Part shown: positions 2,472 to 5,673 of the stretch, piece by piece
How the letters are laid out: every line of letters begins with the position of its first letter
Position numbering within the stretch: the stretch's first letter is position 1
Source of the DNA: Escherichia coli
Lineage (GTDB): Bacteria > Pseudomonadota > Gammaproteobacteria > Enterobacterales > Enterobacteriaceae
Assembly: GCF_002854065.1 (NCBI RefSeq)
Contig: NZ_CP024147.1
Length of the DNA stretch: 64,000 nt
Reading direction: 5' to 3' (one strand)
Notes under the pieces: model-generated
What the model was told of the DNA's origin: nothing
The model's database searches: none
The model's input: the letters and a program-made list of their open reading frames with translations, nothing else
Made by a program: the position numbers and the translations under genes

Positions 2472-3437
2472 TTATTTTCTCTGGTAATCGATGGACAAAC
2501 CGTAGCCCTGAACACCATCCGCGCCAAGGGTGAGGCCATCTTCGCTGTAGTCGAACGCAGTTTTCGCTTCGGCGTTGGTAACCGGGATAACCAGGTCGCT
2601 GTTGTTATGGCTCGGGTTGACAAGCCCGCCGTTGGTATGCAGTTGCAGGCTGGTACCGGTAAAGCGCCAGCGGTAGTTGTAATCGTTGGTAACTTCTTCA
2701 CCCGTATCGTAGGAGCCGTTGTTGTTTTTATCTTTCCACAGCATGACCTGATAGGTGGTATTGGTTTTGAGTTTGGTTTCTTTGCCCAGCAGGTTTGTGT
2801 TAACACCCTGCTCGTGAATGACAACTTTAACCGCATCGTCAAATACCGGACCTTCCGGAATATCATCGCTGTCAGAACCACCGCCCGCGTTGGTGGAGAG
2901 GTCTAACAGGATCAGTTGTTCTGCAACGTTAGGATCACCGGTCGTGGTGGTCGGGGTAATTTTCAAACCGATGTAGCGATCGGCATCCGCTGCGGCAATG
3001 GTATAGGTGTCACTGCCCGTTGTACCGATCTCTTTCGGATCACCCCCCGCCTGGTCGCTATAGCTCATCCATTGCAGCGTCGCTTTGGTTGCAGTGTTGT
3101 TGTCGTCAAGATCGCCTTGGGTATCGCCAATGGCCCAGTTTGCAGTTAACTTGTCACCAATATGAAATTGCTTCTCGCCATCGGTTGAAGCAGAACGTCC
3201 GCCACGATCAACGGTAATGGACACATGAGATTTATCAGCATCGGTGATTTCCGTCGCGCTACGAGTGATCCACGGCACTGTACCCTGAATCGTTCCGGTA
3301 GTTTCTGTCTCTGATTGCCACTGACCCGCCCTAAGGTTGCCCTGCCCTTCTGCCATAGCAGCAGGCACTGCACAGTATCCCGCTAAAGCCAGCGCCAGCG
3401 CGACTTTAGTCATCGGTCGCTTTAAATAGTGTTTCAT
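2472..3437 (-). CDS. sinI: SinI-like secreted protein (signal peptide; C-terminal module shared with SinH)
   Basis: ORF track 321 aa, ATG start with AGGAGAG SD; N-terminal signal peptide MKHYLKRPMTKVALALALAGYCAVPAAMA; C-terminal ~90 aa (..YQVMLWKDKNNNG..DLVIPVTNAEAK..DGVQGYGLSIDYQRK) clearly homologous to the SinH C-terminus. Name by synteny with Salmonella sivI/sinI (recollection). Confidence 0.6.
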   Translation of the reverse strand: MKHYLKRPMTKVALALALAGYCAVPAAMAEGQGNLRAGQWQSETETTGTIQGTVPWITRSATEITDADKSHVSITVDRGGRSASTDGEKQFHIGDKLTANWAIGDTQGDLDDNNTATKATLQWMSYSDQAGGDPKEIGTTGSDTYTIAAADADRYIGLKITPTTTTGDPNVAEQLILLDLSTNAGGGSDSDDIPEGPVFDDAVKVVIHEQGVNTNLLGKETKLKTNTTYQVMLWKDKNNNGSYDTGEEVTNDYNYRWRFTGTSLQLHTNGGLVNPSHNNSDLVIPVTNAEAKTAFDYSEDGLTLGADGVQGYGLSIDYQRK

Positions 3438-3492
3438 TCAACTCTCTCCTTGATTAATTTCCAGCGGCTGGCCGATCGGCCATTACGCCGAT

Positions 3493-5673
3493 CTAGTGCT
3501 TGCTGTAAACCACACGTAATCCATACCCCTGCACGCCATCCTCTTTTTGGGCACCAAATTTCTGTACCGCTTCCTCGTTAGTGGCAGGGATGACAATATC
3601 TTCATTACTGGTATTCGATTGCGCACCGGTGTAGCCATTGACGCTGTGCCCGGTAAATTCCCACTGATAGCCGTATTGCGCCATTTCTTCTTCCGTCAGT
3701 TTTTCCGACTGCTGGAAAACGCCATCTTTGTTGGCATCACGCCATAAGACAAAACGGTAGGCGTTATCCACCGGCAAATGTTCTTTGTCGTTATCAATAA
3801 GGTTGACAGGTTTAGTCGCAGATACACGGTAGATAAAGGCATTAACGTCATTGCCCCCCGCCCCGAGGAAAGTCACATCGACATAGTTACTATCGTCATA
3901 CGGCGCGGCCTTTGCTTTCCAGCGGAAGGTGCCGGGCAAAGTACTGGAGAGGGTGACGGTTCCTTTCTCTTTATCTTGCTTCGCGATAAAGACGCACGGG
4001 TTATCGGTCGAGCAGGCTTTATTGGTGAGGGTGACTTTTTTATCCTGAGCATCGTAAAGCTGCGGACTCAGGCCATTTTCTGGCAGCGCATTACCGTTAC
4101 GGTCGGTGTCATCACCAAAGCTATCGGTAACATCGAGATCCATCACCACGCCATCGACGCCATCCGCCTGAGCGCTGGCTTCATGACTGTGATTGTTTTC
4201 ATCCGGCACATCCGCAATGTTGTTGACGATCAGTTCAATTTTGCGATCCTGCTGAACGGTGATTTCCACCACGCCGGAGTTTTGCCGGTTGCCTTTTTCA
4301 TCTTCCAGCGCCAGACGCACGCGCCAGGTATTGAGTTTTTCCTGTTCGGCGGGATCAGAGCTGTACTGCCAGGCTGGCAGCACCAGATTCCAGTGGTTGT
4401 TGTTCCCTTCCGTGATGGTATTTTCTTTGATAACCGGCATCACCAGCGTACGCGCAGCGTTGTTTTTCGCCTGCCACGAGGCGACGACAATCTTATAGTG
4501 ATGGTTGATTAGCGCATTGATTGTCCACTTACATTTTTCCAGCCCTACCGCAGCTTCGGGGGTGTCCTTGATGACACAATCCGGGTGTTCATTGGTGGCG
4601 TCAGCCTTAAGCCACAACGTAACGTCGAGAGGATCTTTTTCTTTATATTCCAGAACAATAAAATTATTGCGCTCAACAAAGTCATGGCGGCTGCCCATCA
4701 GCGAGTGAGCTGCTTTGACGTTATCGCTATTCAGTTGATCTTTTAGCGGAACACCGAACTGATAGTTAATCGTGGCGTTAACGCTAAGATCACTGTTATC
4801 TCCGGTACCTGCTTTATAATCCGTCCCGACAGTCAGTAACGGAACGGGTTGATAGTTCACGCCAAGCGTCACTGCATAGGGATCTTTTTCTAAATTATCG
4901 GTGCCGAAGAGCGCCACTTCGTCACCATAATATTGCTCGAAAACAATTTTGCTCCCCAACTGAGGATAAGAAGGAAGCCAGGCTTCCGCCCGGACATCCC
5001 AGCCACGTGCGGGGCGTTCTAAATAGAAATCAAAATCTTTTGAATCTTTCCACTCTGAAAGCGGATGATAATAGTTACCAGAAAATTTTAAATAATCCGT
5101 CCAGGCTTCTGTTCCCAAACCTAAACGGCGATGTCCGCGGGTGAAATCATAATCATAAAATATATTCCCCCCCAGAAGCCATTTATCAAAATTATGTCTT
5201 ACACCTAAACCTATATTACCTATCGTGCGTTCTTCTTTTCGTTGCGCAGAAAACTGACTGAAATAGACTGTGCTCTGATTGTCATACCAGGGGACAAAAT
5301 AGTCGATTGAACTGCCGTCCAGATCGCCACCCTGACCGATGGAAAGGTTAGAGCGAACTTTACCATAAGGAGAAAGCGCACCTTCGATATAAGACTGTGC
5401 AGATGATGTGATTTGCCCTTGCAGATAGCTTCTCGCCTGGGATTCAAGAGCTTCTGGAGTCAGGTTCTCGAAGCCCTGCTGGGCGGACTCGGTAACGTAA
5501 TTGGCACCACGTTCCTTGAAAGATTTGCCTTTGTTACTTTGTTCCTCTTGTTGAGCCGTTTCGCTTGCCAGATCAGGTAATGAAGATTCGCTTTGCTTAA
5601 TATTTATCTTCGGTGCCGCATAAGCAGCACCAGAAATAACGATTAGCGTTATATAGCGAATCCATCGCAGCAT
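3493..5673 (-). CDS. sinH: Intimin/invasin-family inverse autotransporter (SinH-like)
   Basis: ORF track 726 aa, ATG with AGGAAA SD; signal peptide MLRWIRYITLIVISGAAYA; N-terminal beta-barrel region with the family motifs (..YFVPWYDNQ..GNIGLGVRHNF..GWDVRAEAWLPSYPQLGSK..GSRHDFVERNNFIVLEYKEK) followed by Ig-like passenger repeats. 55-bp spacer to sinI suggests an operon. Confidence 0.75.
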   Translation of the reverse strand: MLRWIRYITLIVISGAAYAAPKINIKQSESSLPDLASETAQQEEQSNKGKSFKERGANYVTESAQQGFENLTPEALESQARSYLQGQITSSAQSYIEGALSPYGKVRSNLSIGQGGDLDGSSIDYFVPWYDNQSTVYFSQFSAQRKEERTIGNIGLGVRHNFDKWLLGGNIFYDYDFTRGHRRLGLGTEAWTDYLKFSGNYYHPLSEWKDSKDFDFYLERPARGWDVRAEAWLPSYPQLGSKIVFEQYYGDEVALFGTDNLEKDPYAVTLGVNYQPVPLLTVGTDYKAGTGDNSDLSVNATINYQFGVPLKDQLNSDNVKAAHSLMGSRHDFVERNNFIVLEYKEKDPLDVTLWLKADATNEHPDCVIKDTPEAAVGLEKCKWTINALINHHYKIVVASWQAKNNAARTLVMPVIKENTITEGNNNHWNLVLPAWQYSSDPAEQEKLNTWRVRLALEDEKGNRQNSGVVEITVQQDRKIELIVNNIADVPDENNHSHEASAQADGVDGVVMDLDVTDSFGDDTDRNGNALPENGLSPQLYDAQDKKVTLTNKACSTDNPCVFIAKQDKEKGTVTLSSTLPGTFRWKAKAAPYDDSNYVDVTFLGAGGNDVNAFIYRVSATKPVNLIDNDKEHLPVDNAYRFVLWRDANKDGVFQQSEKLTEEEMAQYGYQWEFTGHSVNGYTGAQSNTSNEDIVIPATNEEAVQKFGAQKEDGVQGYGLRVVYSKH

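Follow-up and report, generated by a model that had tools for sequence, protein, structure and literature searches.

Why does a small protein without a β-barrel end in the same domain as the tip of the adhesin encoded beside it? The question is raised by a 64,000-nucleotide stretch of Escherichia coli DNA (contig NZ_CP024147.1; hereafter the window), in which sinH, the gene of an intimin-like inverse autotransporter (IAT), is followed on the same strand by sinI. An earlier note on this DNA, made from the letters alone, had reported that the last ~90 residues of the two proteins align, and had offered four roles for the smaller one: decoy, competitor, co-receptor binder or assembly partner. The C-termini of SinI and SinH are homologous and have a whole domain in common. 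With a probability of roughly 55%, we take SinH and SinI to be a pair of the type of Salmonella ZirT/ZirS/ZirU, in which the barrel-less SinI would be displayed or secreted in a SinH-dependent manner and would carry a second tip domain. Of the four roles, that of a partner is favoured here, and sequence data cannot separate them. The likeness had been put forward as a fresh lead; it is already known, published and annotated in databases, since Heinz 2016 and Goh 2019 report it and the NCBI name 'autotransporter-associated' encodes its interpretation. The finding at this locus is accordingly a rediscovery of a documented feature at an annotated locus.

The domain common to SinI and SinH

The names given in the note are borne out by family models. 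SinI passes NF040711 (partner_SinI) with 420.6 bits against a cut-off of 165 (E = 3.8e-126, model positions 2–299 of 299), and SinH is an NF033423 equivalog (1480.4 bits against a cut-off of 999). The outer-membrane barrel of SinH matches Pfam IAT_beta (E = 3.1e-105) as well as the Protein Data Bank (PDB) structures of invasin (4e1t, E = 6e-72) and intimin (4e1s, E = 7e-64). The segments singled out earlier were placed correctly: 2472–3437 is the 321-residue open reading frame (ORF), and 3493–3760 is the 3′ end, the last 89 codons, of the 726-residue ORF.

SinI residues 223–320 align with SinH residues 633–725 at 38% identity and 55% positives (BLASTP, E = 6e-16). The Smith–Waterman score of SinI against SinH is 172, compared with 42 ± 6 for 500 shuffles of SinI (z = 20.5), and the two modules on their own reach z = 25.2, far above chance. 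The family models cross-match over the same region, SinI with positions 625–730 of the SinH NCBIfam model (E = 6e-20) and SinH with positions 189–299 of the SinI model (E = 2.5e-21). From 13 species pairs and a hidden Markov model (HMM) of the module, the homologous unit measures about 120 residues (SinI 196/201–321, SinH 606/607–726); the similarity described in the note therefore stands, and the extent of ~90 residues was too short. As the note held, the module is the distal domain of SinH, its third immunoglobulin (Ig)-like domain. SinH is under development as a vaccine antigen against extraintestinal pathogenic E. coli, and the fragment SinH-3, domain 3 at residues 602–724 (Xing 2023, a paper that does not mention SinI), is the domain duplicated by SinI. 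Judged by sequence, the C-terminal domain of SinI is an old, diverged paralogue of SinH domain 3, at about 36% identity.

The likeness is confined to this domain. SinI residues 30–200 do not resemble the remainder of the SinH passenger (345–610; z = −0.3), and an HMM scan of all six frames of the window detects the module twice and no more. The ratA-like product, which the note had named as a possible third carrier, has none: no copy was detected in the full RatA-like protein (2139 residues, locus L001) by BLASTP or by hmmsearch with filters off at E ≤ 100. A match limited to the C-termini would fit a decaying remnant of a partial sinH duplication, or a chance or compositional similarity. The probability of such an origin is next to nil, as it is refuted by the shuffles (z = 20–25), by a ratio of nonsynonymous to synonymous substitution rates (dN/dS) of 0.07–0.13 in each half of sinI when compared with two diverged Escherichia alleles, by a sinI ORF that is intact in every species examined and has a signal peptide and a ribosome-binding site of its own, and by the existence of a curated family for SinI. 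From the dN/dS values, about 0.08 for sinI, it is therefore a functional gene under purifying selection.

Structure prediction of both C-termini agrees with the alignment. The SinH module alone is predicted by AlphaFold2 (AF2) with a predicted local distance difference test (pLDDT) score of 87 and a predicted template modelling score of 0.80, and in both modules the modelled elements follow one another as strand, strand, loop, strand, strand, helix, strand. The SinH-module model matches C-termini of the SinI family in the AlphaFold database with template modelling (TM) scores of 0.72–0.81. In these models the module is an Ig-like β-sandwich that includes a single helix; in both copies an EF-hand-like loop (D-x-N-x-[DN]-G-x-[FY]-x-x-x-E) lies between two strands. 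The domain does not match the lectin-like (C-type-lectin-like) fold of Intimin_C and invasin D5. No Pfam model covers the module and no close solved structure was found. Searches of SinI, SinH, the module alignment and the N-domain alignment against Pfam left both SinI domains uncovered, with faint partial matches only; a PDB sequence search with SinI, as a single sequence and as a profile, gave no match at E ≤ 10; and the two-domain SinI model retrieved only generic tandem Ig/FN3 structures from the PDB with Foldseek (best E = 0.013).

The loop was scored with the 12-residue pattern D.[DNS].[DNS][GDNS].[hydrophobic][DENQST]..[DE], as a test for Gly at position 6 and for acidic or amide residues as ligands at 1, 3, 5 and 12. 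All 13 SinH modules carry it, as do 10 of 13 SinI modules and 20 of the 27 modules of a broader set, compared with 0.1% of shuffled modules. The loop presumably falls outside the strict PROSITE EF-hand pattern, having F at position 8. The conserved D-x-N-x-D-G...E motif probably binds Ca2+ and stiffens the domain.

The module is rare. A profile search of 1.84 billion representative proteins returned 59 hits; in nearly all full-length hits with a single matching stretch, the module forms the very C-terminus of a protein of about 280–400 or about 725–750 residues. Matches to the SinH module in the AlphaFold database at E ≤ 0.001 are SinH-like and SinI-like proteins of Enterobacterales and insect symbionts. 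Some SinI-like proteins of Hafnia, Yersinia, Regiella, Fukatsuia and Zophobihabitans are labelled 'ornithine carbamoyltransferase' (for example A0A2U8I7C8, A0A4Q9ECA7 and A0AA90YBE5), which looks like a propagated misannotation.

SinI as a candidate partner of SinH

In the favoured reading, SinI would be exported by Sec and would then associate with SinH, or use SinH to reach the surface or the medium. Outside the cell it would present a second tip domain of the same type, which may add valency or reach to SinH-mediated adhesion. This reading is favoured because the gene order is invariant, because co-transcription has been reported and because secretion of ZirS depends on ZirT. It is favoured further because SinI has a leader segment in common with the RatA-like protein and because the tips are matched again in a second lineage. 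In all 14 species loci (Escherichia, Citrobacter, Superficieibacter, Leminorella and others), sinI lies directly downstream of sinH, separated from it by about 45–80 nt. No terminator-like site was found in the spacer between the two genes of the window, and co-transcription is stated in a review (PMC12525524, 2025), which cites Shea 2022. ZirS is Sec-dependent, is secreted when ZirT is present and is released into the medium (Gal-Mor 2008). Weak ZirU_fam matches, too, lie on the SinI-type N-domain, in SinI itself (E = 4.7e-5) and in a partner protein of a distant lineage (L016, see below; E = 3e-5).

The SinI precursor has five parts (Table 1). The Sec-type signal peptide, which supports the export claimed in the note, was recognised by inspection from its positively charged n-region, hydrophobic core and A-x-A site. 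A conserved 'AGYC' within it was considered as a lipoprotein signal and rejected on inspection, since the Y at −1, before the C, does not make a lipobox. A leader segment and a β-rich N-domain follow, and a predicted disordered hinge connects the latter to the module. The hinge is the most conserved segment, with 84% mean identity over 12 species, compared with 65–69% for the signal peptide, leader segment, N-domain and module. It is rich in Gly, Ser and Asp, and its motif recurs in relatives. Such conservation in a segment modelled as disordered is what one usually sees in a functional linear motif rather than in a passive linker.

The leader segment is present in both barrel-less proteins of the locus, SinI and the RatA-like protein. 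In an hhalign comparison of mature N-termini (17 SinI and 12 RatA-like sequences), SinI residues 35–59 align with the RatA-like profile over 25 columns with a probability of 97.1% (E = 5.7e-11). The consensus L-K-x-G-x-W-Q...T-x-I-x-G-T-x-P stands directly after the signal peptides of both proteins, and its core, T-x-I-x-G-x-x-P, is retained in remote barrel-less partners, including those with other C-terminal domains. A common export or docking signal is possible, and the segment is a candidate recognition element for the step in which SinI would associate with, or be exported by, SinH. More tentatively, and in our estimate improbably, the SinH barrel or passenger would recognise barrel-less proteins by this leader and export or dock them, and the tip of the partner would be selected to match that of the adhesin because both work as one multivalent adhesin. 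If this were true, the locus would define a genuine 'type Ve two-partner' route of secretion whose signal can be identified, and the SinH-3 vaccine target would have a second, partner-borne copy, so far unrecognised.

A second lineage bears on the matching of tips. Two metagenome contigs (L016 and L020) encode a SinH-like autotransporter of 751 residues and, collinear with it, a SinI-like partner. The module of this distant autotransporter is closest to that of its own partner (48% identity, 106 bits, BLASTP), compared with 33% and 45 bits for E. coli SinH. In a neighbour-joining tree, the autotransporter (H) and partner (I) modules of these contigs are sister groups with 97% bootstrap, to the exclusion of both Sin groups, and the H-type and I-type HMMs of the Sin clade score the distant H modules equally, at about 55–58 bits. 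The match between the tips of adhesin and partner was therefore made or renewed more than once, and this repetition is the strongest argument from sequence, in this analysis, that the match is functionally wanted.

The same operons encode a second barrel-less protein that has a SinI-type leader and N-domain (NF040711, E = 1.4e-28; in L016 also a weak ZirU_fam match, E = 3e-5) and an intimin-like Ig/lectin C-terminus (Big_2/Ig_Eae). The compact distant operons thus comprise an autotransporter, a SinI-like partner and an alternative-tip partner. Because the same N-domain occurs with another C-terminus, the N-terminal unit is constant and the C-terminal domain exchangeable.

A matched tip would also suit a soluble competitor or decoy: free SinI would bind the ligand of SinH and modulate adhesion, or would absorb antibodies against the SinH tip. 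SinI has a signal peptide and neither anchor nor barrel, its counterpart ZirS leaves the cell, its module equals the SinH-3 antigen with the same conserved motifs kept in both copies, and the recurrence of tip matching in the second lineage fits a decoy as well. The modules are, however, only 36–38% identical, so that a common ligand specificity or antibody cross-reaction cannot be assumed. A simple decoy would, moreover, have no use for the conserved N-domain, leader and hinge. We consider a decoy unlikely and favour the partner reading over it.

Within the Sin clade, the modules fall into separate orthologous groups, with identities of 65% among H copies and 68% among I copies. Identity between H and I modules is 35.8% within the same genome and 36.5% between genomes. 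Together these values indicate that the duplication is old and that the copies did not evolve in concert; gene conversion or concerted evolution within the clade was considered and rejected on the latter two figures. Correlations of pairwise distances are 0.76–0.90 among the domains of SinH and 0.85 between the two domains of SinI. Between SinH and SinI they are weak, at 0.33–0.54 (adjacent genes, L001–L015), which suggests recombination between the adjacent genes and a reshuffling of alleles. Substitutions of the types T>I, A>V, T>M, R>C, P>L and H>Y run systematically through the SinH and SinI sequences P0128 and P0134, which were therefore rejected as natural variants; both are artefacts, translated from assembled reads with C-to-T (bisulfite-like) conversion.

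Several observations weigh against SinI being a SinH-dependent partner. The near-equal H–I identities within and between genomes give no sign of module-specific co-evolution, and the correlation of the H module with the I module (0.47) is not above that of the SinH barrel with the I module (0.54), so a finely co-evolving interface finds no support. A further SinI-like gene, P0163 (L019:8001–9074, CP050253.1), has slyX and a gene of the EamA family as its neighbours, and no inverse autotransporter is encoded within 8 kb of it. IatB, which is SinH, gives biofilm formation without the downstream protein (Goh 2019). The match of the SinI N-domain to ZirU_fam scores far below the cut-off (23.6 bits against 100). 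How a barrel filled by its own passenger could export a partner as well is a question that Heinz 2016 discusses for ZirT itself, and no experiments on SinI secretion or SinI–SinH binding were found in the accessible literature.

Some of these points would be explained if SinI-like proteins acted independently and were linked to sinH by descent of the island, the domain being a reused building block. The orphan gene in L019, the weak divergence correlation of sinH and sinI (r = 0.33–0.54) and the swappable C-terminal domain fit that account, and it is set against the adjacency of the genes in all 14 species loci and in L016 and L020, the sister relationship of H and I modules in the second lineage, and a module that occurs almost nowhere outside SinH-like and SinI-like proteins. 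We regard an independent function as quite unlikely.

A role for SinI in the periplasm, as a chaperone or template with whose help the SinH passenger, and perhaps RatA, would fold and be exported, appears slightly less likely still. Heinz 2016 discusses periplasmic Ig-like domains that aid the biogenesis of other Ig-domain proteins, and the tight operon linkage and the conserved hinge would suit such a helper. SinH/IatB, however, reaches the surface and works in the absence of the downstream gene (Goh 2019); ZirS, the closest precedent from experiment, is secreted and not retained; and the leader, which the giant RatA-like adhesin has too, suggests a common export route rather than a chaperone role.

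If SinI were displayed or secreted together with SinH, it could be a second, related vaccine target, or an antibody sink. For the question of whether inverse autotransporters can export separate partners at all, the leader, the hinge and the matched tips offer concrete elements that can be mutated.

The locus and its alleles

The island consists of three minus-strand genes, the last of which reads leftward from 2181 off the window (Table 1). Its product matches NF011844 (RatA-like) with E = 0 and a score below the cut-off, because the sequence is truncated at the window end. From 6161 on, the minus strand carries der, bamB, yfgM, hisS, ispG, rodZ and rlmN of the E. coli chromosome. Genomes identical over 1–6200 have the same RefSeq annotation (sinH, SinI family) and the island between xseA and der.

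Table 1. Coordinates of the island genes, of the parts of their products and of related partner genes. Residues are numbered in the respective protein; positions refer to the window unless a locus is given.
Feature	Residues	Position	Strand	Remarks
sinH		3493–5673	−	726 aa; intimin-like inverse autotransporter
SinH parts	signal peptide about 1–19; IAT β-barrel 64–337			three Ig-like passenger domains follow the barrel
SinH copy of the module (Ig-like domain 3, distal)	606–726	3496–3858	−	module HMM E = 6e-46 at 607–725
EF-hand-like loop of the SinH module, DANKDGVFQQSE	646–657	3703–3738	−	putative Ca2+ site
sinH–sinI spacer		3438–3492	−	55 nt; AAGGAG ribosome-binding site 7 nt before the sinI ATG
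sinI		2472–3437	−	321 aa; SinI family autotransporter-associated protein, without β-barrel; RefSeq-annotated as such
SinI signal peptide	1–29	3351–3437	−	cleavage predicted after AMA
SinI leader segment, LRAGQWQSETETTGTIQGTVPWITR	35–59	3261–3335	−	also in RatA-like protein
SinI N-domain	60–177	2907–3260	−	β-rich, Ig-like; AF2 pLDDT about 50–84
SinI hinge, DLSTNAGGGSDSDDIPEGPVFD	178–200	2838–2906	−	predicted disordered; pLDDT below 50
SinI copy of the module	201–321	2475–2837	−	module HMM E = 4e-43 at 196–321; pLDDT about 80–90
EF-hand-like loop of the SinI module, DKNNNGSYDTGE	236–247	2697–2732	−	
ratA-like adhesin gene, 5′ part		1–2181	−	runs off the window; 2139 aa in an identical genome (full gene in L001)
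RatA-like leader segment	27–47	2041–2103	−	right after the signal peptide
Alternative-tip partners		L016:4782–5885; L020:10001–11068		proteins P0190–P0197; conserved small family, 8 members

A small zinc-ribbon gene (5883–6098) lies between der and sinH and adjoins an AT-rich region of 210 bp immediately upstream of sinH (5674–5882), where the GC content falls to about 40% at the upstream end of the insert. The region is as expected of a horizontally acquired, possibly silenced promoter.

The gap between sinI and the ratA-like gene holds REP-like palindromic repeats at about 2310–2415 (gcctgatg...cttatcaggcctac; ...ggcgttaacgccgcatccggca). It measures 290 nt here and in L002, widened by these repeats, and 86–176 nt in other species loci. 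The sinI allele of the window is rare, being found in 57 of 5426 complete E. coli genomes by blastn, O145:H28 strains among them; other E. coli alleles encode proteins of only about 62–66% identity to it. In two loci, L013 (E. coli E69, about 3357–6315) and L006 (about 4968–6312), the sinH frame is split or truncated and sinI is intact.

Comparison with known systems

That SinI lacks a barrel and resembles the Ig-like domains of SinH was described by Heinz 2016, with credit to Kingsley 2003; the same paper likens SinH/SinI to Salmonella ZirT/ZirS/ZirU and proposes a two-partner-like export model that includes Rat-like proteins. Goh 2019 draws the same Zir analogy for E. coli IatB and EcSMS35_2660. 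The exact equivalence of the module with the vaccine antigen, the common leader segment, the conserved hinge, the swappable tip and the repeated tip matching were not found in the accessible literature, and neither was the purifying selection on sinI.

The closest counterparts are orthologues. The sinH–sinI(–ratA) genes of the Salmonella enterica CS54 island and the E. coli pair iatB/sinH and EcSMS35_2660 have the same order and occupy the same site between xseA and der. Salmonella SinI is about 65–70% identical to the protein of the window, which carries a rare E. coli allele, and the window differs from the CS54 locus by the REP-like element that widens the sinI–ratA gap to 290 nt.

The Salmonella ZirT/ZirS/ZirU system is a zinc-regulated inverse autotransporter with secreted Ig-like partners. 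The likeness lies in the arrangement, an IAT barrel protein followed by barrel-less proteins that have Sec signals and Ig-like domains resembling the passenger, into which SinI fits. Dependence of secretion on the autotransporter, along with physical interaction of the two, was shown for ZirS and ZirT only; a SinH-dependent secretion of SinI would be its counterpart. Among the matches listed, SinI orthologues filled two large protein searches aimed at ZirS/ZirU or other architectures.

Two-partner secretion (TPS; TpsB/TpsA, for example FhaC/FHA) likewise combines a separate barrel with a Sec-exported passenger that has a conserved N-terminal segment. The SinH barrel, in contrast, belongs to an unrelated family, IAT_beta and not Omp85/POTRA, SinH carries a passenger of its own, and the SinI leader has 25 residues, compared with about 250 in the TPS domain. 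To intimin and invasin, SinH is related by a homologous barrel (E = 6e-72 to 7e-64) and by Ig-like passenger domains. The Ca2+-binding β-sandwich domains CnaB and SdrD-B of Gram-positive adhesins and pilins are also counted among the closest systems.

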